From contig OZ024759.1 in the NCBI GenBank assembly GCA_964016885.1, positions 20,770,001 to 20,834,000 on the forward strand: a stretch of DNA of 64,000 bases. Reading direction: 5' to 3'. This stretch comes from Eledone cirrhosa (taxonomy: Eukaryota). Below, piece by piece: positions 1-54,770 of this stretch. A model generated the notes under the pieces. It was given only the letters and a program-made list of their open reading frames with translations, searched no databases and was not told the DNA's origin. The translations under genes and the position numbers were made by a program. The number at the start of each line of letters is the position of its first letter. Position 1 is the stretch's first letter.

Positions 1-3000
1 TCGGTCGGTCATTTGGTTCGGTTCGGATCGGTAATTCGGTCGGTCATTCGGTTCGGATCGGGTCGGTCATTCGGTCGGTCATTCGGTTCGCTTCGGGTCG
101 GTCATTTGGTTCGGTTCGGCTCGGTCATTCGGCTCGGTTCGGGTCGGAAATTCCGTCGGTCATCCGGTTCGGTTCGGTTCCGGTCGGTCATTCGGTTCGG
201 TTCGGATCGGTCATTCGGTTCGGCTCGGTTCGGTTCGGGTCGATCATTCGGTCGGTCATTTGGTTCGTTTCGGTTCGGATCGGTCATTCGGTCGGTCATT
301 CGGTCCGGTTCGGTTCCGGTCGCTCATTCGGTCGGTCATTTGGTTCGGTGCGATTAGGATCGGTCGTTCCGTTCGGTTCGGTTCGAGTCGGTCATTCGGT
401 CGGCCATTCGGGTCGGTTCGGATCGGTCATTCGATCGGTCACTCGGTTCGGGTCGGTGATTCGGTTCGGCTCGGTCATTCGGTTCGGTTCGGCTCGGTCA
501 TTCGGTTCGGTTCGGCTCGGTCATTCGGTTCGTTTCGGGTCGCTCATTCGGTTCGGGTCGGTCAGTCGGTTGGTCATTCGGTTCGGTCATTCGGTCGGTC
601 ATTCGTTTCGGATCGGGTCGGTCATTCGGTCTGTCATTCGGTTCGGTTCGGGTCGGTCATTCGTTCGGTCATTCGGTTCGGTTCGGGTCGGTCATTCGGT
701 CGGTGATTCGGTTCGGTTCGGGTCGGTCATTCGGTTCGGTCGTTCCGCTCCGTTCGGGTCGGTCATTCGGTTCGGTTCGGTTCAGGTCGGTCATTCGGTT
801 CGGTTCAGGTCGGTCATTCGGTTCGGTTCCGGTCGGTCGTTCGGTTCGCATCGGTCATTCGGTTCGGTTCGGGTCGGTCATCGGTTCGGGTCGGTTATTC
901 GGTTCGGTTCCGGTCGATCATTCGGTCGGTCATTCGGTTCGGTTCGGTTCCGGTCGATCATTCGGTCTGTCAGTTGGTTCGGTTCGGATCGGTCATTCGG
1001 TTCGGTTCGGTTCCGGTCGATCATTCGGTTCGGTTCTGCTCGGTCATCGGTTCGGGTCGGTTATTCGGTTCGGTTCCGGTCGATCATTCGGTCGGTCATT
1101 TGGTTCGGTTCGGTTCGGATCGGTCATTCGGTCGGTCATTCGGTTCGGTTCGGTTCCGGTCGATCATTCGGTCTGTCAGTTGGTTCGGTTCGGATCGGTC
1201 ATTCGGTTCGGTTCGGTTCCGGTCGATCATTCGGTTCGGTTCTGCTCGGTCATCGGTTCGGGTCGGTTATTCGGTTCGGTTCCGGTCGATCATTCGGTCG
1301 GTCATTTGGTTCGGTTCGGTTCGGATCGGTCATTCGGTCGGTCATTCGGTTCGGTTCGGTTCCGGTCGATCATTCGGTTCGGTTCGGATCGGTCATTTGG
1401 TCGGTCATTCGGTACGGTTCGGTTCCGGTCGGTCATTCGGTTCGGTTCGGATCGGTCATTCGGTTCGGTCGTTACGTACGGTTCGGTTCGGGTCGATCAT
1501 TCGGTAGGTCATTTGGTTCGTTTCGGTTCGGATCGGTCATTCGGTCCGGTTCGGTTCCGGTCGATCATTCGGTCGGTCATTTGGTTCGGTGCGGTTAGGA
1601 TCGGCCATTCGGTCGGTCATTCGGTTCGGATCGGGTCGGTCATTCGGTTCGGTCGTTCCGTTCGGTTCGTTTCGGGTCGGTCATTCGGTCGGTCACTCGG
1701 TTCGGGTCGGTGATTCGGTTCGGTTCGGTTCGGCTCGGTCATTCGGTTCGGTTCGCTCATTCGGTTCGGGTCGGTCATTCGGTTCGGGTCGGTGAGTCGG
1801 TTCGGGTCGGTCATTCGGTTCGGTTCGCATCGGTCATTCGGTTCGGTTCGGGTCAGTCATTCGATTCGGTTCGGGTCGGTCATTCGGTCGGTCATTCGGT
1901 TCGGCTCGGTCATTCGGTCGTTCCGTACGGTTCGGTTCGGTCATTCTCTCGGTCATTCGGTTCGGCTCGGTTCGTTTCGGGTCGATCATTCGGTCGGTCA
2001 TTTGGTTCGTTTCGGTTCGGATCGGTCATTCGGTCGGTCATTCGGTTCGGTTCGGTTCCGGTCGATTATTCGGATCGGTTCGGGTCGGTCATTCGGTTCG
2101 GTTCCGGTCGGTCATAAGGTCGGTCATTCGGGTCGGTCATTCGGTCGGCCATTATTCGGTTCGGTTCGACTCGGTCATTCGGTCGGTCGGTCATTCGGTT
2201 ATTCATTCATTCGGTCATTCATTCATTCATTCATTTATTCGGTCATTCATTCGTTCATTTATTCGTTCATTCATTCGTTCATTCATTCGTTCATTCGGTT
2301 CGGTCATTCGGTTCGGGTCGGTCATTCGGTTCGGTTCCGGTCTGTCATTCAGTTCGGATCGGTCATTCGGTCGGTCATTCGGTTCCGGTCTGTCATTCAG
2401 TTCGGATCGGTCATTCGGTCGGTCATTCGGTTCGGTTCGGATCTGTCATTCCGTCGGTGATTCGATTCGGATCAGTCATTCGGTCGGATCATTCGGTACG
2501 GTTCGGATCGGTCATTCGGTCGGTCATTCGGTTCGGATCGGTCATTCGGTCGGTCTTTCGGTTCGGTTCTGGTCGGTCATTCGGTTCGGTTCGGAAATTC
2601 CGTCGGTTATTCGGTTTGGTTCCGGTCGGTCATTCGGTTCGGATCGGTCATTCGGTTCGGGTCGGTCATTCGGTTCCGTTCGGTTCGGGTCGATCATTCG
2701 GTTCGGTTCGGGTCGGAAATTCCGTCGGTTATTCGGTTCGGTTCCGGTCGGTCATTCGGTTCGGATCGGTCATTCGGTTCGGGTCGGTCATTCGGTTCCG
2801 TTCGGGTCTGTCATTCGGTCGGTCATTCGGTTCGGTTCCGGTCGGTCATTCGGTTCTGTTTCGGTCGGTCATTCAGTTCGGTTCGGGTCGGTCATTCGGC
2901 TCGGTTCGGATCTGTCATTCGGTTCCGGTCGGTCATTCGGTTCGGTTCGGTTATTCGGTTCGGGTCGGTCGTTCGGTTCGGGTCGGTCATTCGGTTCGTT

Positions 3001-6000
3001 TCGGGTCGGTCATTCGGTTCGTGTCGGTTATTCGGTTCGGTTCCGGTCGATCATTCTGTCGGTCATTTGGTTCGGTTCGGTTCGGTCATTTGGTTCGGTT
3101 CGGTTCGGTCATTCGTTTCGGTTCCGGTCGGTCATTCGGTTCGGCGCGGTCAATCGGTCAGTCATTCGGTGCGGCTTGGTCATTCCGTTCGATTCGGTCG
3201 TTCCGTACGGTTCGGTTCGGTCCTTCCCTACTGTTCTGTTCGGCTCGGTCATTCTGGCGGTCATTCGGTTCGGCTCGGTTCGTTTCGGGTCGATCATTTG
3301 GTTCGTTTCGGTTCGGTTCGATTCCGGTCGATCATTCGGTCGGTCATTTGGCTCGGTGCGTTTCGGATCGGTCATTCGGTCCGGATCGGGTCGGTCATTC
3401 GGTTCGGTTCGGCTCGGTCATCGGTTCGGGTCGGTTATTCGGTTCGGTTCCGGTCGATCATTCGATCGGTCATTCGGTTCGGTTCGGTTCCGGTCGATCA
3501 TTCGGTCGGTCATTTGGTTCGGTTCGGATCGGTCATTTGGTCGGTCATTCGGTTCGGTCATTCGGTTCAGTTCGGTCGTTACGTACGGTTCGGTTCGGGT
3601 CGATCATTCGGTCGGTCATTTGGTTCGTTTCGGATCGGTCATTCGGTGCGGTTCGGTTCCGGTCGATCATTCGGTCGGTCATTCGGTCCGGATCGGGTAG
3701 GTCATTCGGTTCGGTCGTTCCGTTCGGTTCGTTTCGGGTCGGTCATTCGGTCGGCCATTCGGTTCGGGTCGGTTCGGTTCGCATCGGTCATTCGGTTCGG
3801 TTCGAGTCAGTCATTCGATTCGGTTCGGGTCGGTCATTCGGTTCGGGTCGGTCATTCGGTTCGGCTCGGTCATTCGGTCAATCATTCGGTTCGGCTCGGT
3901 CAATCATTCGGTTCGGTCGGTCATTCGGTTCGGTTCCTGTCGGTCATTCGGTCGGTCATTCGGTTCGGTTCGGATCGGTCATTCCGTCGGTCATTCGGTT
4001 CGGATCGGCCATTCGGTCGGTCATTCGGTTCGGTTTGGATCGGTCATTCGGTTCGGCTCGGTCATCGGTCAGTCATTCGGTGCGGCTCGGTCGTTCCGTA
4101 CGGTTCGGTTCGGTCGTTCCGTACTGTTCGGTTCGGCTCGGTCATTCTGGCGGTCATTCGGTTCGGCTCGATTCGTTTCGGTTCGGTCGGTCATTTGGTT
4201 CGGTTCGGTCGGTCATTTGGTTCGGTTCGGATCGGTCATTCGGTCGGTTATTCGGTTCGGTTCCGGTCGATCATTCGGTCGGTCATTTGGTTCGGTTCTG
4301 ATCGGTCATTTGGTCGGTCATTCTGTTCGGTTCCGGTCGGTCATTCGGTCGGTCATTCGGTTCGGTTCGGATCGGTCATTCGTTTCGGTTCGGTCGTTAC
4401 GTACGGTTCGGCTCGGTTCGGTTCGGGTCGATCATTCGGTCGGTCATTTGGTTCGGTGCTGTTCGGATCGGTCATTCGGTTCGGATCGGGTCGGTCATTC
4501 GGTTCGGTCGTTCCGGTCGGTCATTCGATCGGTCACTCGGTTCGGCTCGGTCATTCGGTCAGTCATTCGGTTCGGGTCGGTGAGTCGGTTCGGTTCGGGT
4601 CGGTCATTCGGTTCGGGTCGGTCATTCGGTTCGGTTCGGGTCGGTCATTCGGTTCGGTCGTTCCGCTCCGTTCGGGTCGGTCATTCGGTTCGGCTCGGTT
4701 CAGGTCGGTCATTCGGTTCGGTTCCGGTCGGTCGTTCGGTTCGCATCGGTCATTCGGTTCGGTTCGGGTCGGTCATTCGGTCGGTCATTCGGTTCGGTTC
4801 GGTCATTCGGTTCGGTCATTCGGTCGGTCATTCGGTTCGGTTAGGGTCGGTATTTCGGTCGGTCATTCGGTTCGGATCGGTCATTCGGTCGGTCATTCGG
4901 TTCGCTTCGGTTCGGTCATTTGGTTCGGTTCGGCTCGGTCATTCGGCTCGGTTCGAGTCGGAAATTCCGTCGGTCATCCGGTTCGGTTCGGTTCCGGTCG
5001 GTCATTCGGTTCGGTTCGGATCGGTCATTCGGTTCGGCTCGGTTCGGTTCGGATCGGTCATTCGGTCGGTCATTCGGTCCGGTTCGGTTCCGGTCGATCA
5101 TTCGGTCGGTCATTTGGTTCGGTGCGGTTAGGATCGGTCTTTCGGTCGGTCATTCGGTTCGGTCGTTCCGTTCGGTTCGGTTCGAGTCGGTCATTCGGTC
5201 GGCCATTCGGGTCGGTTCGGATCGGTCATTCGATCGGTCACTCGGTTCGGGTCGGTGATTCGGTTCGGCTCGGTCATTCGGTTCGGTTCGGCTCGGTCAT
5301 TCGGTTCGTTTCGGGTCGCTCATTCGGTTCGCGTCGGTCAGTCGGTTCGGGTCGGTCATTCGGTTCGGTTCGCAGCGGTCATTCGGTTCGGTTCGTATCG
5401 GTCATTCGGTTCGGTTCGGGTCAGTCATTCGGTTCGGGTCGGTCATTAGGTCGGTCATTCGGCTCGGTCATTCGGTCGATCATTCGGTTCGGCTCGGTCA
5501 TTCGGTCGGTCGTACCGTACGGTTCGGCTCGGTCATTCTCTCGGTCATTCGGTTCGGCTCGGTTCGTTCCGGGTCGATCATTCGGTCGGTCATTTGGTTC
5601 GTTTCGGTTCGGATCGGTCATTCGGTCGGTCATTCGGTTCGGTTCGGTTCCGGTCGATTATTCGGATCGGTTCGGGTCGGTGATTCAGTTCGGTTCCGGT
5701 CGGTCATAAGGTCGGTCATTCGGGTCGGTTCGGTTCGGTCGTTCCGTTCGGTTCGGGTCGGTCATAAGGTCGGCCATTATTCGGTTCGGGTCGGGTCGGT
5801 CATTCGGTCGGCCATTATTCGGTTCGGTCGGTCGGTCATTCGATCATTCATTCATTCAGTCATTTATTCGGTCATTCATTCGTTCATTTATTCGTTCATT
5901 CATTCGTTCATTCGGTTCGGTCATTCGGTCGGTCATTCGGTTCGGGTTGGTCATTCGGTTCGGTTCGGTTCCGGTCTGTCATTCAGTTCGGATCGGTCAT

Positions 6001-6880
6001 TCGGTCGGTCATTCGGTTAGGTTCGGATCTGTCATTCCGTCGGTGATTCGGTTCGGATCAGTCATTCGGTCGGATCGTACGGTTCGGATCGGTCATTCGG
6101 TTCTGTTCGGGTCGGTCATTCGGTCGGTCATTCAGTTCCGTTCGGTTCGGGTCGGTCATTCGGTTCGGTTCGGGTCGGTTCGGTTCCGGTCGGTCATTCG
6201 GTTCGGATCGGTCATTCGGTTCGGGTCGGTCATTCGGTCATTCGGTTCCGTTCGGGTCTGTCGGTCGGTCATTCAGTTCGGTTCCGGTCGGTCATTCGGT
6301 TCGGTTCCGGTCGGTCATTCGGTTCGGTTCCGGTCGGTCATTCGGTTCGGTTAGAGTCGGTCATTCGGTTCGGTCGTTCCCTTCGGTTCGGGTCGGTCAT
6401 TCGGCTCGGTTCCGGTCGGTCATTCGGTTCGGTTCCGGTCGGTCATTCGGTTCGGTTCGGTCATTCGGTCGGTCATTCGGTTCGGGTCGGTCATTCGGTC
6501 ATTCGGTTCCGTTCGGGTCTGTCGGTCGGTCATTCGGTTTGGTTCCGGTCGGTCATTCGGTTCGGTTAGAGTCGGTCATTCGGTTCGGTCGTTCCCTTCG
6601 GTTCGGTCGTTCCCTTCGGTTCGGGTCGGTCATTCGGCTCGGTTCGGATCTGTCATTCGGTTCGGTTCGGTCATTCGGTTCGGGTCTGTCGTTCGGTTCG
6701 GGTCGGTCATTCGGTTCGTGTCGGTTATTCGGTTCGGTTCCGGTCGATCATTCGATCGGTCATTCGGTTCGGGTCGGTTATTCGGTTCGGTTCCGGTCGA
6801 TCATTCGGTCGGTCGGTCATTTAGTCGGTCATTTAGTCGGTCATTTAGTCGGTCATTCGGTCGGTCATTCGGTCGGTCAT
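1..6880. repeat. CpG-rich satellite of CGGTT / CGGT / CGGTCATT units with higher-order duplications; runs off the window start
   Basis: Continuous permutations of cggtt, cgggt, cggat and cggtcatt. Rare variants recur at fixed offsets: tcattctctc at 1941/5533 and tcataagg at 2112/5704 (offset 3592); cggaaattccgtcggtcatcc at 145/4959. Confidence 0.95.
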
Positions 6881-14896: not shown

Positions 14897-15093
14897 GTAG
14901 GTCCCGGGTTGAGTCGGGGATAACCACAGTAAGTAAGGTACTCAATACAAGGCAGAGTAAATTTTTTTTATTTTATTTTATAGAAGGAGCTTCTACAGGA
15001 CTAGTACTGTTTCATTCAGATGAAATCTTCAGGAAGCTTCCTGAAGATTTCATCTGAATGAAACAGTACTAGTCCTGTAGAAGCTCCTTCTAT
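14897..15093. mobile_element. PLE-type fold-back cassette family P1: tail plus perfect 114-bp palindrome (14980-15093), between (TA)n
   Basis: Perfect inverted repeat centred at 15036/15037. Tail ccacagtaagtaaggtactcaataca is shared with the copy at 56851-57037. Confidence 0.85.
15035..15085 (+). ncRNA. Type I hammerhead ribozyme motif (mirror copy on the minus strand)
   Basis: Stem I agcttc/gaagct; CUGAAGA; stem II U-U then ttc/gaa; GAAA; stem III acag/ctgt; GUA triplet ending at 15079. Confidence 0.75.
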
Positions 15094-15322
15094 TATATAT
15101 ATATATATATATATATAAATTCTTGTCGAACACTCTTCGATAAGCAGCGATTCTTTGCTTAAACTTTAATCTGTTATAATATATATATTTTGGGGGACAC
15201 TGTGAATTTTCTTTTTGAAGGACTACTGGCTTTTCAAATTTAGCTGTCCATTTAGCACTGACGGGGACCATCACTATTTTATTAATATCGATGTAGTTTT
15301 TTATATCGATATTGAATGGGCA

Positions 15323-15724: not shown

Positions 15725-15983
15725 ATTTTATTATACATATTTCAGAGGTACTTCAACAGTACGTCCTCATCAGATAAAATAAGATGATGCATGACATACC
15801 TTGAATAAGTAGATGGTTAAAATTCAGTCATGGCAGTGCATAAGATAGGACAAAACTCAATATTTATATACCTTTAAAAAATGACATATAATACAGAAGG
15901 TGCGTCATGCATCATCTTATTTTATCTGATGAGGACGTACTGTTGAAGATAGCTCAGTACCTCTGAAATATGTATAATAAAAT
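15725..15983. mobile_element. PLE-type inverted-repeat cassette (arms 15725-15795 and 15904-15983)
   Basis: The arms are reverse complements; the left arm has a short deletion. Confidence 0.8.
15919..15983 (+). ncRNA. Type I hammerhead ribozyme motif
   Basis: Stem I attttat/ataaaat; CUGAUGA; stem II including gtactg/cagtac; GAAA; 2-bp stem III; AUA triplet ending at 15976. Confidence 0.75.
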
Positions 15984-16097
15984 CTCTGTGTATCTGTGTG
16001 TGTGTTTCTGTGTGTGCTGGGGAAAAGTTCTGAAACTATCGAGCCCTCTTTGGATTTTAGTCTTCAAATTTATTATTAATACTATATATATATATAT

Positions 16098-16679
16098 ATT
16101 GCCTGTCTGTTTCGTTCCTTGTATCTCTACCACTTTTAGCAGTTTCCTCTCTGTTACCCTCTCCTCAACTTTCACTCACTCATTCTCTGTCACTACCTCT
16201 CCTCCTCCTCTTTCCTCCTCCTCCTTCAAGTTTGACCTGTGTGTAATTCTTTTCTCGCGCAGTCTTGACCGAGCTGGTAATAATTTTTTTTCTCTCTCTC
16301 TTTCGTCTGCGACTTCACAAAACTTGCGTTTACCGAATTCGTAGACCAGTTTTCGTTCTCTCTCTCTCTCTCTCTCTCCTTTTTCCCCCCCGTCAAACTT
16401 GGGCGAAATTCTTTCCTTGCTCACATTTCTACCAGGTTCGATGGTCTTTCGTCTCTTGTTCACGATTTCACAGAGTTTATATTCATAGAGATCTGGGACT
16501 TGTCTATTTCTACTCACTTTCCGTTGCTATAACCCTTTTGTTGTTACTCTAATGTCTCCCCCTTATTTACGTGTCCCAACGACTTTTTTTAGCCGTTGTT
16601 CGCACCAACCTGAGGCATATGGCCCTTAAAGCGATGAAATGCCGAGGACGGTTGGAGGGTCACTGATGAGGACTCACTT

Positions 16680-16683
<4 letters not shown>
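16098..16683 (+). mobile_element. Non-coding TC-rich element (family R, copy A) ending in a permuted hammerhead, between (TA)n
   Basis: Body aligns by eye with the minus-strand copy at 18209-18682 (aaattctttccttgctcacattt vs aaattcttttctcgctcacattt; gtctttcgtct shared). Confidence 0.7.
16605..16670 (+). ncRNA. Candidate non-circularly permuted hammerhead ribozyme (copy A)
   Basis: ccaacc-tga-ggca-UA-tggccct...GAAA-tgcc...ggttgg-agggtca-CUGAUGA. Stem III ggca/tgcc, stem I tggccct/agggtca, outer helix ccaacc/ggttgg. Confidence 0.7.
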
Positions 16684-16737
<54 letters not shown>

Positions 16738-18208
16738 TTGTCGTTTTAACGACTGCTTTCACACACATCCACCCCATATGACCACTTTCGCTATGGCCAC
16801 CAAGCATATAAAAACTTCCTGTCCTTGCCACCAAGCATATAAAAACTTCCTGTCCTTCCCAGATAATAATAATAATAAATATAAATATAATGCTGCCATA
16901 ACACTCATGGAGCCAACACATCTGTAAATGTCTGTCATTTATATACCTATAAATCTACGACCTAACATTAGCATCACTGTCTGTTTCTGTGAATGGGTGT
17001 TGGGGGCTCTCTGTGTATCTGTGTGTGTGTTTCTGTGTGTGCTGGGGAAATGTTCTTTCTTCAAATATATATTCAGAGGAAACGATTGTATTCGAGTTTG
17101 ATCTTTTTATTTATATATTAATGATTAATGAAACATAATTACCAATAAAAGATCAAACCCGATCACACAAAGACACACATACGCACACACACACACACAC
17201 ACAGACACACAGACACACACATACGCACACGCACACACACACAAATAAATATATATATATAAGTATAAATATGTGTTTGTGTGTGTTGGTCTATATATAT
17301 ATATATATTATATATATATATATGTGTGTGTAATTCATTATCATATATTGTATCATTATGTATATATGTATATATATATATACACACACATATATATACA
17401 CATATATATATACACATATATATATATACACACATATATATATACACATATATATACACACATATATACACACATATATATACACACACATATAGATATA
17501 TACACACACATATATATATATACACACACACACACATATAAATATATATATATACACAGATATATATACACATATATACACACACACGTATATATATATT
17601 TATATAGATATATATATACACACACACAAACGCATTAGTATAAATTTCTCTATATTTGATAATTATTAGCAATGTCAGAGTTAGTCGGAATCAGCGACCT
17701 TTATGTCATTTATTCATAACAAATCAATTAGTCAGAGTTTCATTGTTCATTGGGGGTTCTTCAGCATTCTTGGTCTGGTTTGATGTGGTTATAGCTTAGC
17801 TGGAGAAGGTCTGAGACAGTGGAGATAGACATTGAGGATAGGACATTAGAGGAAACAAAAAAAAAATGGTTGTAATTCTATAGAAGAATGGTTTGATCAA
17901 GACCAGTGATTCTGAAATGGACTGGAGTACTTTAACCCCAGGGTGAAGGGATTAGGAAAGAATCTGAACTGTGACACAGTAGTGTGTATTGTGTGTATGT
18001 ATGATTGTGTGTATATATGTATTATGTATGTATGTTTGTGTATGTATGATTGTGTGTGTATATATATGTATGTATTATGTATGTATAATTGTGTATGCGT
18101 ATGTATATATTTATATATATGTATGAATGTTTGTGTATGTATGATTGTGTGTGTATATGTATGTATAATTGTATATGTGTATGTATAAATGTATATATAT
18201 ATATATAA

Positions 18209-18682
18209 AAATTAAAAAATAGAGTAAGAAGCCAGGACTATCCGTCCTCAGTGATCTTCTGGCCACCATAGGTATTTCTTCGCATTAAAGATCATATACC
18301 TCAGGCCAGCGCGAGCAATAACCCAATAAAGTTATTGGGATGCAAAGAATTGGCTGGAGAAAGAGAGACATGTAAAAAAACAAGAATGGTAAGGCAACGT
18401 AAAGGGTGAAAAATCAAGTCAGTGATACAAGTGAACATAAGATCTGGCGAATCAGTGACGAAAAGACGAAAGACGCATCCAGGCCATGCGAAATGTGAGC
18501 GAGAAAAGAATTTTACACAGGTCAGACGGGTGGGAGAGAGAGAGAGAGAGAGAGAGAGGGTGAGTAGCAGAGAGTGAGTGAGTGAAATTGTGAGGAAGAG
18601 GCTAGCAGAGGGGGTGAATGAAAGTAAGAGGTACAAGGAGAGAGAAAGAATAGTGCTGGCTTCTTACTCTATTTTTTTAATT
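18209..18682 (-). mobile_element. Family R copy C, with its 3' tail duplicated in inverted orientation at the 5' end (PLE-like)
   Basis: About 31 bp at 18210-18240 is the reverse complement of 18651-18682; TC-rich body is homologous to copy A. Confidence 0.72.
18244..18309 (-). ncRNA. Candidate non-circularly permuted hammerhead ribozyme (copy C)
   Basis: Minus strand: ctggcc-tga-ggta-UA-tgatctt-taatgcgaa-GAAA-tacc-tatggt-ggccag-aagatca-CUGAGGA. All three helices are fully Watson-Crick. Confidence 0.7.
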
Positions 18683-18794
18683 CATATGCTTGTGCCCTTC
18701 CTATCTACGGTTAACTTTCCTCTTTGTTGTTTACTTGTCTCACTCGCTTTACGCGTTTTAATTGTCCTAATAACTTAATTTAGTTATTATTGCA

Positions 18795-18860
18795 CCAACG
18801 TGAGGTATATGATTTTTAATGCAATGAAATATCTATGATCGTTGGCAAATCACTGATGAG
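18795..18860 (+). ncRNA. Candidate non-circularly permuted hammerhead ribozyme (copy B1)
   Basis: Outer ccaacg/cgttgg; stem III ggta/tatc; AUA; stem I tgattt/aaatca; GAAA 18826-29; CUGAUGA 18853-59. Confidence 0.68.
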
Positions 18861-19322
18861 GGACTCATTTTATAACATGTTATCCATGTGCAACCTGCAG
18901 TATTCTTCTCCCCATTTTTTCACATATATTTACCTAAACTGCGATTCTCTTTTTCTCTCTCTCTCTTACTGCTCCCTCGTTCTCTCTGTTTCTCTTACTT
19001 TCTTTCGCCCCCTCTGTCATGTCAGTTAACACTTTCTCTCTACTGACCTCTTCCTCACACTTCCACTCACTCAATCACTGTTTCTCCCCTTCTCACTTCA
19101 CCCCGTTCGCGACGAAAACAAATTCCTTCTTTCCTACATTTGGATTCATCTCGAAAGGTCTTTTTTCTACGCGCTCATATATTCACCCAGCTTATGCTGA
19201 CAGAATAACTATGTAGCTTGTGCCCTTCCTATCTACGGTTAGCTTTCCCCTGTGTTGTGTACTTGTCTCACTCGCTTTACGCGTTTTAATTGTCCTAATA
19301 ACTTAATTTAGCTATTATTGCA

Positions 19323-19388
19323 CCAACGTGAGGTATATGATTTTTAATGCAATGAAATATCTATGATCGTTGGCAAATCACTGATGAG
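19323..19388 (+). ncRNA. Candidate non-circularly permuted hammerhead ribozyme (copy B2)
   Basis: Identical to B1; CUGAUGA at 19381-87. Confidence 0.68.
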
Positions 19389-19923
19389 GGACTCATTTTA
19401 TAACATGTTATCCATGTGCAACCTGCAGTATTCTCCCCATTTTTTCACATATATATATATATAAACCTGCGGCTCAGTGGTTACTGATGATGTTGATCTT
19501 TTCTTCTTTTCGGGTTATAGCTACAGCCATCATGTATATATGCATTATGTATGTATGTATGTATGATGAATATATGATTGTGTGTGTATGTATGTATTAT
19601 GTATGTCTGTATGTTTGTGTGTATTTATGGACACGTAACTTCTGATGCAGTCGTAGGGACACCGTAGCATCAAACGCCATAGTGTCTTGGCCACTTCAAA
19701 CCTGGCCGAGCGTATCTTCTCTCCAGGTGGGAACATAGCCGAGAGAGATAAGTGTGTATGGGGGGGGGGGACGTAGAGGAAGAATTGACACCAGTACTAG
19801 ACTGGTATTTATTTTTTTATTAATCCGAAAAAGAATGAAAGGCAAGTGTGTCCTTGGCAGAATTTTAAGGACATCCTTGCCGTCCTGAGCCGAATCAAAT
19901 ATCGCAGAACAATCAATTCTCCA

Positions 19924-20050
19924 ACGTCCCTTTACGGTCTGAGTTCAAATCCCGTCGAGGTTAACTTTGCCTTTCATCCTTACGGGGTCGATAAAATAAA
20001 GTACCAGTAATGTACTGGGTAATTGCTGGCCTTGTTCCAATAGTAGAAAC

Positions 20051-20053
<3 letters not shown>
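19924..20053 (+). mobile_element. SINE family A, 5'-truncated
   Basis: B box, core and tail present. Confidence 0.88.
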
Positions 20054-20107
<54 letters not shown>

Positions 20108-50477: not shown

Positions 50478-51341
50478 ATCAAGAAAGAAGAGTGACACGG
50501 TTTGCTATACAAAAAAGGTTTTTAATCACTTTGCTGACAATTGTTTCTCTGAACTGGTAGGTCTAGAGATCGCTACCCGCCTGTTTTCGCGTCAATCGAT
50601 CACCAATACATAGTTGTAACCACCTCAAACTGCAACTGTCACCTACCGGATAGGTGCCCATTGGCGAACAGATGCCTTGATTCGAGCCTAGTGTACATGT
50701 GTACGGTCACCTCGGGCAACTCCACTTGGCATTACATTGGATCCACCGCGGGTACTTTTAAAGAAAGATGGTATGTGCACAGACACTCGATGAAGAATCG
50801 TGCACTTATAGGTTCTACAACCCTCGCCAAAAAATCTGGGAACTTAAGGACAATAGCACCAACTACAATATCAACTGGTCGAGGTTGTCGGCCGCAAGGG
50901 CATACAGTACCGGTATGTCCTAGTGTAGGCTCTGTGATCTTGAATTACTGTATATCCTTAGGAATGAGAAAAGGCTACTCAACAACAAGATAGAAAGATC
51001 AATTTTCTGCAGACACAGGATCGCCACTAAATTCACAAGATTTAAGCCACCGTGAATCGAACCAACATAACTTAGCATTCAACATATTATATCCACGCTA
51101 TTACACGGACCACCACAGAACTAGTATACTCATTAAGCAGATTCTAGCCTTCTTAATTCTATACCACAGTAATGTCTTCAAATATCTTATCAACCCATAA
51201 ATATATCTCTTCTCAGCTGTTGTCAACACAACTTCCTCACCCTTGATTCTCAACAGATGAACCTAAATCCAAGTACATTTTCGGAATACTACCACAGTAA
51301 AATATCACCTTCCTCCTGTTGTTATAATTGTAGTCAGCATG

Positions 51342-53417: not shown

Positions 53418-54270
53418 TTTTACCAATAGAGAGAGAGTGGGTTTCTAACATAGACACAAGACTCTCTCATTGGAATTTACACAACATCAACTAGGTAGAT
53501 ATGCATGTGTAGATATGGATGTTATTGTATGTGTCGATGTGGATGTTTTGAGTTGTATGATGTGCATGTGTATATGCTTTGTATCTGTACATGTGTATAT
53601 GCAGTTACTAGATGCAATGTTTTACATATTTTTACTGTTCCATTAATGGATTGCACTTGTAATTTCCTAACTAGTTGTGTTCTTTCTGTTCCTGTGAAGC
53701 CTAGCTTCTCAAGATTTGTATTGGGGCAGTTACTAACATATCCCAGTGCCCCAATAATCACAGGCATAAATCTGAAGGTGTAATCAGGATGGAGTGTCTG
53801 CAGATTTCTCATCAGTTCTGCATAAATATTCTCCTTTTCACTAATCTTTGATATTATATTGGCATCTGCTGGACAGCTAATTTCCACTACTGTGCATGCT
53901 TTCTTCTACCTGTCCCATATCATAATATCTGGTCTGTTATGCCTGCATTTTATTGGGGTTTTTACTGGAACATTCCACCAGTACTCTTTCATATTATGTA
54001 CATGGATGTCTTCCACATTGTTATAGCTTTTAATGTGTTTATTATCGGGGCTATCTTTTATACGAACTGCATTGTACAGTGTTTTGGCCACTACATCATG
54101 TCTCATAGGTAGATAGTACCGCGATGACATCTTTGGACAGCTGCTGATGACATGGGTGATATCCTCGATGTTAGTTCTGCAGAGTCTGCACTTGTTATCA
54201 CATCTAGGTGTTTTGCCTGCATCCCTATCTTTTTTGTGAATCAGGTATTTCGTGCTAATCTCCTGGATTG
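53418..54270 (-). mobile_element. R4/Dong-type non-LTR retrotransposon 3' part: CCHC knuckle, restriction-like endonuclease and 3' UTR
   Basis: CRLCRTNIEDITHVISSC, RHDVVAK, RPDIMIWDR*KKACTVVEISCPAD, KENIYAEL, PVIIGALG; one in-frame stop. Confidence 0.87.
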
Positions 54271-54283
54271 TATGTATGTATGT

Positions 54284-54770
54284 CAAGTCAGGTCACCAGT
54301 TGGTGCTACTGGTAACATGTATCCCAGTACAACCTGTCTCATGGTCGAGTCGTTGGCGACTAAACTGGCAACCCTACCAAGGTTTCTTGGTGAGGAAGGT
54401 GACTTTGGACATCCTGCAGGACTAAAAACAAAACCTGTCAAAGGGCAAAGGAGCTCTTAAGAGTCATGGCCATCCAAAACACCGGGAGAGATGACCCCTT
54501 AGCCTTTGTCAAGGCAGAATTATAGGAGAAGGAAAACTCTGATATAACACCTGCAACCCTGGTGGTATCCAATGATGTTGACTTGTTCTTCTTTTTGGTA
54601 CCATGGGCCCAGCACTGTGTCAATAATTGTCACAAGTGTAGTGTTTGTACCAGAGTATTCAAGTCGCTGGCTGGACTAAAAAGTCACACTCGTTCAGCGC
54701 ATCGGTAGGGGTTCTCCTACATGGATATAAAGTAGTGGCCGTACTCGAAAACGAGTTGGCAACCACCATG
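54284..54770 (+). mobile_element. Probable internally deleted LINE derivative (5' UTR-like part plus C2H2 3' end) flanked by (TATG)n
   Basis: CSVCTRVFKSLAGLKSHTRSAH; tail shared with 47252-47520. Confidence 0.6.

Follow-up and report, generated by a model that had tools for sequence, protein, structure and literature searches.

A predicted non-circularly permuted hammerhead ribozyme with a replaced stem II in a high-copy, probably Penelope-like repeat of Eledone cirrhosa

A stretch of 64,000 nt from Eledone cirrhosa (assembly GCA_964016885.1, contig OZ024759.1, positions 20,770,001 to 20,834,000), referred to here as the window, contains short motifs that carry the core blocks of a hammerhead ribozyme in a rearranged order. 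The question raised by this locus is whether these motifs are self-cleaving ribozymes, how their strands are connected and which element harbors them. An earlier note, made from the letters alone, had described four copies with three distinct sequences, in which the cleavage site is followed by GAAA and then by CUGANGA, and had placed the start of the first copy at 16605 (all positions are those of the window).

A topology scan of the 64,000-nt window for the outer helix, stem III, UH, stem I, GAAA and CUGANGA returned four places (16605-16669, 18795-18859 and 19323-19387 on the plus strand, 18245-18309 on the minus strand), while the same scan gave no match in any of 200 windows simulated with a second-order Markov model of this sequence. 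The identical four places, and nothing more, were recovered when the window was searched with a profile. The four copies and three sequences described before are thereby borne out, and the stem III, stem I and outer helices are present as they had been quoted, with a seventh pair of stem I in copies A and C only. The full motif begins approximately 33 nt further 5' (near 16572, 18763 and 19291, and at 18342 on the minus strand) and contains three added helices, P1, P2 and P3. The start at 16605 was consequently set too far downstream, and the transcripts proposed with it would omit the upstream strand of P1, P2 and P3.

The general order of the 5' half is the 5' strand of P1, hairpin P2, the 5' strands of P3 and P4, UGA, stem III, UA, the cut and stem I. 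The 3' half continues with UAA(U/A), the 3' strand of P3, one base, GAAA, stem III, six bases, the 3' strand of P4, stem I, CUGANGA, one base and the 3' strand of P1. In copy A (16572..16674, plus strand, delimited by strand-by-strand reading and the topology scan), the 5' strands of P1 (16573-16576), P3 (16600-16603), P4 (16605-16610) and stem I (16620-16626) enclose hairpin P2 (16577-16598) and stem III with UA (16614-16619), the cut being predicted after 16619. These are followed on the same strand by the 3' strand of P3 (16631-16634), GAAA (16636-16639), the second strand of stem III (16640-16643), a kink-turn strand (16644-16649), the 3' strands of P4 (16650-16655) and stem I (16656-16662), CUGAUGA (16663-16669) and the 3' strand of P1 (16670-16673); most siblings of copy A have one extra base 3' of CUGAUGA. 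Copy B1 (18763..18865, plus strand) has its P1 5' strand at 18764-18767, P2 at 18768-18789, the P3 5' strand at 18790-18793, CUGAUGA at 18853-18859 and the P1 3' strand at 18861-18864, with the predicted cut after 18809. Copy B2 (19291..19393, plus strand, predicted cut after 19337) lies 528 nt after B1, and its P2 has one mismatch. Copy C (18239..18342, minus strand) comprises P1 (ATCC/GGAT), P2, P3, P4 (CTGGCC/GGCCAG) and a CUGAGGA core at 18251-18245, the predicted cut falling between 18295 and 18294; it carries C.A at 10.1/11.1 and a G instead of an A at kink-turn position 2b.

For a larger alignment, 39 copies were picked to span the subfamilies, taken from 153 distinct stretches (first 116 loci) and 32 matches to a relaxed pattern. 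In P3, P4, stem III and stem I, 90.5% of the cells were paired, compared to 35-43% in slid-partner controls, and double changes occurred in 18 of the 22 pairs. In the 23 copies with an alignable upstream part, 91.4% of the cells of all seven helices were paired (P1 90%, P2 90%, P3 86%; slid-partner controls 31-47%), with double changes in 23 of 35 pairs, and compensatory changes in P1, P2 and P3 were found within single copies. Pair-count and pair-type measures did not exceed shuffles in the four-helix alignment of 39 related copies (43/500 and 27/500), nor did the pair-type measure in the seven-helix alignment of 23 related copies (264/500); since the aligned copies share ancestry, shuffle controls overstate significance. 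In 37 of 39 copies (one misplaced row dropped), CUGANGA follows at a constant distance, even though the pattern used did not demand it. The relaxed pattern, with a different stem III, gave its 32 matches (reversed control 0) mostly in older families with other helix sequences, and the core bases are retained in families whose helix sequences differ widely, part of these bases being demanded by the search patterns. The earlier reading had been made dependent on covariation and core conservation in a larger alignment, and both were observed (90-91% of cells paired versus 31-47%, core in 37/39); CUGANGA, GAAA and UH are also each adjacent to their own helix, stems I and III, in the aligned copies, as had been claimed. 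By covariation and core conservation over many subfamilies, the assignment to a non-circularly permuted hammerhead is well supported as a prediction from sequence. The wiring is shared by an old family, designated Z (L197-L226, 81-86% identity with the query copy), in which P1 and P3 are present and the P2 hairpin is absent.

Stem II is normally formed between the strand that precedes GAAA and the one that follows CUGANGA. In the motif described here each of them pairs with the upstream strand, with P2 located between both pairings, and a continuous stem II between the CUGANGA and GAAA strands is absent, P1 and P3 being found instead. Direct pairing amounts to 0-1 bp in 32 of 39 aligned copies, to at least two pairs in 7/39 and to at least three in 1/39. 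At 10.1-11.1, a single G-C, G-U or A-U pair is present in 33 of 39 copies and a non-standard one in the remaining 6, including copy C of the window; subfamilies in which 10.1/11.1 is A.A, C.A or A.C have spread in the genome. The former statement that stem II comprises at most one G-U pair is therefore adequate for direct pairing, but overlooked that both strands pair upstream.

According to the accessible text of Huang et al. (2021, PMC8191799), a standard kink-turn is built of a bulge of three bases, then tandem G.A and A.G pairs, with a non-Watson-Crick 3b:3n. The loop joining stem III to P4 fits this description, including the tandem G.A/A.G, in 37 of 39 copies, a count to which the search patterns contributed by demanding part of these bases. 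No copy has a Watson-Crick pair at 3b:3n, and 30 of 39 have C:G at -1b:-1n, identities that are in line with folding in metal ions. In the predicted fold, P1, P2, P3 and the 0-1-bp stem II would meet in a four-way junction and thereby keep the CUGANGA strand joined to that of GAAA, and the kink-turn would fold back P4, the extension of stem III, to let P4 continue directly into stem I. Single-strand folding, to which pseudoknots are invisible, recovered P2, P4 and stem III for each of the three sequences, and additionally P1 for B and C.

The motif belongs to an abundant repeat. A tight 33-base pattern had 7,013 exact matches in the 3.0 Gb genome (reversed control 0), and three listed sequencing runs, contigs of one sample, confirm the high copy number. 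One motif is present per non-coding unit of 493-745 nt, near the 3' end of the unit (49 unit intervals, some from overlapping loci), and the units are arranged in head-to-tail arrays and inverted pairs flanked by (TA)n. Among 81 terminal copies with (TA)n within 300 nt (of 85 examined), the 3' ends were located at +64-66 from the cut in 17 and at +104-115 in 54 (71/81 together), a pattern which resembles the optional tail of Penelope-like elements. For the latter, the accessible text of Craig et al. (2021, PMC8557442) lists partial tandems, inverted 5'-truncated copies, (TA)n targets and an optional 30-40-nt tail, and partial tandems, inverted 5'-truncated copies, an optional tail and microsatellite targets were all found here, as expected of a non-autonomous Penelope-like element. 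Within the window, which is microsatellite-rich animal DNA, copy A lies in a 5'-truncated non-coding unit (16083..16735, plus strand, 97% identical over 663 nt to locus L004) that ends at 16684 in (TA)26 (16684-16735). The repeat around copy C (approximately 18205..18640, minus strand) belongs to a diverged subfamily, shows 68% identity with the A unit across 393 nt and faces the B array head-to-head. This array is a partial tandem (18688..19463, plus strand) of a truncated first copy, one full unit, a second ribozyme and a tail; the full unit extends from cut site to cut site over 528 nt (18810-19337).

The 5' ends of the repeat copies were surveyed with patterns demanding three non-consensus bases immediately upstream of a given position. 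Matches numbered 83 at the cut (position 0), 88 at +2 and 11 at -5, the counts at 0 and +2 being inflated by TA microhomology; after removal of TA-like and likely deletion rows, sorted by eye, the comparison was 37 versus 8 (p 1.5e-5). A gapped listing of TA junctions was dominated by microhomology and left out of the counts. Inverted junctions starting exactly at the cut and free of microhomology are present at L014, L053 and L111. Exactly one unit followed by the next ribozyme was found in 15 of 29 copies starting at the cut versus 16 of 84 others (Fisher p 0.0014). The 5' ends are scattered along the whole unit and show a step at the predicted cut rather than a sharp spike, with +2 no rarer than 0; in many arrays the cut site is intact and the sequence continues across it. 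The step and the one-unit spacing would fit templates with a cleaved 5' end; given a step instead of a spike and arrays through the intact site, cleavage would be incomplete, or the ends would be ligated afterwards.

The best explanation, given a probability of about 0.72, is a predicted self-cleaving hammerhead of the order site-GAAA-CUGANGA (S-G-C), its stem II replaced by an upstream strand; one such hammerhead is present per unit of a high-copy repeat that probably originated from a Naiad tail and represents a non-autonomous Penelope-like element. Transcripts of tandem units would be cut after AUA, the predicted self-cleavage site, and the resulting RNAs of unit length may form circles like those of retrozymes. 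Priming at (TA)n targets, 64-115 nt 3' of the cut, would be carried out in trans by a reverse transcriptase/endonuclease of the Penelope type. Synthesis would end early, at the 5' terminus left by cleavage, or continue across a junction that is uncleaved or has been re-ligated, which would generate the partial tandems.

An unlikely alternative, although the strongest of those considered, is that the hammerhead cleaves only with help, either as a dimer between tandem units or with a kink-turn-binding protein, P1 and P3 possibly holding it inactive as a switch. Dimer cleavage is reportedly known for small Penelope-associated hammerheads, which counts in favor of such help, as do the direct stem II of 0-1 bp in 32/39 copies and the intact junction kept in many arrays. 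Many kink-turns, moreover, need L7Ae-type proteins according to the accessible text of Huang et al. (PMC8191799). In contrast, the pairing of P1, P2 and P3 (86-90%, with compensation within copies) argues for a substitute for stem II in cis, and the identities at 3b:3n and -1b:-1n (never Watson-Crick and C:G in 30/39, respectively) accord with folding in metal ions. Somewhat less probable still is a ribozyme-derived structure that is no longer catalytic and is kept as a recognition signal for reverse transcriptase. Its location 15-65 nt from the 3' ends, the presumed sites of priming, is in agreement with such a signal, and so is the spread of subfamilies with A.A, C.A or A.C at 10.1/11.1; such a structure would leave unexplained why the core bases are kept while the helices differ widely between families, and why the number of 5' ends rises at the predicted cut, where a transcriptase arriving from the 3' side would presumably have unwound the structure already. 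Chance pairing in a family of merely related copies, for which only this relatedness and the shuffle controls that overstate significance speak, is very improbable in view of 0 matches in 200 simulated windows, double changes in 23/35 pairs and older families that share the wiring with unrelated helix sequences.

The origin assigned to the repeat rests on a comparison with Naiads, which in the accessible text of Craig et al. (2021, PMC8557442) are reported to be devoid of canonical hammerheads, only 'core' or 'half-core' matches being flagged. In the supplement of that study, 58 of 62 CTGATGA passages were viewed, 19 of which are in the Naiad consensus file. Judged by eye, 8 of these 19 have the order S-G-C and a strand before GAAA that pairs upstream; assigned by file order, they are Beroe, three near-identical Acropora, two near-identical Octopus and two other records, the one of Beroe being weak (2-bp stem I). 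Two nematode passages have the order C-S-G and nine have neither order, while one further S-G-C was seen by eye among 30 of the 43 CTGAAGA passages. By the same inspection, the Acropora tails contain P1, P2 and P3, and the two Octopus tails contain P1-P4 with a UGA/AAUGAU loop and a P2 loop identical to those of window family B. Among published elements, those of Octopus contain the nearest relatives of the motif. Stem III of old family Z resembles that of the Octopus Naiad tail. The nematode records, located before Naiad_Hcon and Naiad_Hpol, appear by eye as complete C-S-G hammerheads whose stem II is normal and whose stems I and II are linked by a helix; for this order, the accessible text of Eckert et al. 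(2023, PMC10085705) gives two metagenomic examples only.

An autonomous partner was sought in the genome. A Naiad frame combines an N-terminal GIY-YIG domain with a reverse transcriptase bearing a DKA motif. No Naiad coding sequence was found beside the ribozyme, including the regions upstream of the older families, and no genome match was obtained with a short pattern built on the published tail of the Octopus Naiad. A DKA-motif pattern had three genome matches, one of which is a decayed Naiad-like reverse transcriptase (L230:3980-5260) with 99 related places; among the 30 of these that were scanned, decayed remnants of one lineage, none had the motif within approximately 1.5 kb. Protein searches gave no clear full-length protein with an N-terminal endonuclease, and a GIY-YIG family search led to Penelope-like elements with a C-terminal endonuclease, none of which had the motif at its own tail in 50 of 150 listed places. 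The elements with long frames that were examined are likewise of the C-terminal-endonuclease type with tails devoid of the motif. Frames of this type at L177, L178 and L179 (938, 844 and 1096 aa) encode candidates for moving the repeat in trans.

Descent of the repeat from a Naiad tail is nevertheless probable, judged from the sequences compared, and the motif probably accounts for the ribozyme that Naiad elements seemed to lack. It is stated with less confidence, but still favored, that Naiads across animals carry predicted hammerheads of non-circular order only, namely an S-G-C form with a splinted four-way junction (with a kink-turn in cephalopods) and a C-S-G form in nematodes. These would be the first such ribozymes encoded in animal genomes, presumably active in cis and driving a new retrozyme-like class with thousands of copies. 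If this is true, non-circular hammerhead permutations, so far derived from anonymous environmental RNA, gain a host and a function in animal genomes; the statement that Naiads thrive without hammerheads would be overturned, as would the suggestion that hammerheads merely parasitise Penelope-like elements.

Several other features of the window were recorded. A decayed GIY-YIG-like frame with a CNC...CPL...C linker (50553-51000, plus strand; no Pfam match at E 0.1) is likely a Penelope-like remnant, and a fragment at 53522-54292 (minus strand) represents the C-terminus of a non-LTR retrotransposon with a weak zf-RVT match. Positions 1-6878 are occupied by a long degenerate satellite of GGTTC/TCGG units, and palindromic stretches (14974-15099 and 15725-15983) are located just upstream of the ribozyme repeats. 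A SINE-like repeat of approximately 135 nt, present at 19924-20060 and at about 25 other places, is the commonest dispersed repeat seen around the ribozyme copies.

With regard to described ribozymes, no Rfam family reached its gathering score in the window and no hammerhead was among the 49 matches at E up to 10, so that the comparison with Rfam suggested before gave no known hammerhead; the order is also none of the circular types I-III. The Rfam matches are of low complexity only, apart from a weak C/D-box snoRNA over B1/B2 at E 5.7. Twister and pistol were weighed by eye against their consensus and dropped, and a pattern scan of metagenomes for the motif gave no match. A literature search, covering mostly journals outside subscription, yielded no report of this wiring, nor of permuted hammerheads in Naiads or animals.

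The order itself, present in all four copies as the earlier note had claimed, is not novel: it is that of the type-SGC hammerheads (HRIMA-1 and variants), which according to the accessible text of Eckert et al. (2023, PMC10085705) stem from metatranscriptomes, cleave in vitro and were not found in genomes of known organisms. The permutation was thus read correctly, whereas the strand replacing stem II, the kink-turn-type loop, the Penelope-like host and the Naiad tails had been missed. As described in the same text, stem II is continuous in published type-SGC hammerheads, with an additional helix that connects it to stem I, and their descriptor demands G10.1-C11.1 plus at least two more stem II pairs (2-6). 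The window family shares with them the S-G-C order, CUGANGA, GAAA and UH each beside their own helix, and a short linker between stem I and the strand that precedes GAAA. It departs from the descriptor both in stem II, which has 0-1 bp and is accompanied by an upstream strand forming P1, P2 and P3, and in the helix joining stems I and II, since the extra helix here extends stem III across a kink-turn-type loop (PMC10085705). The block order is therefore already published, while the splint for stem II and the kink-turn on the stem III scaffold are without a match found in print. Like the standard kink-turn of Huang et al. (PMC8191799), the loop has a 3-nt bulge, then tandem G.A/A.G and a non-Watson-Crick 3b:3n; unlike there, it is predicted from sequence rules and is located inside a hammerhead. 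The repeat has (TA)n targets, partial tandems, inverted 5'-truncated copies and an optional 30-40-nt tail in common with Naiad as described in the accessible text of Craig et al. (2021, PMC8557442), and differs from it in consisting of non-coding 493-745-nt units to which no endonuclease or reverse transcriptase frame was found attached. Non-LTR retrozymes are described in the accessible texts of Cervera and de la Pena (2020, PMC7229834) and Li et al. (2026, bioRxiv 10.64898/2026.07.22.740005) as non-coding tandem units of approximately 170-400 nt with one type I hammerhead each, for which mobilisation by Penelope-like elements via cleaved or circular RNA has been proposed. The repeat of E. 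cirrhosa resembles these in having one hammerhead per non-coding tandem unit, whereas its hammerhead is of the non-circular S-G-C order instead of type I, and its units are longer.
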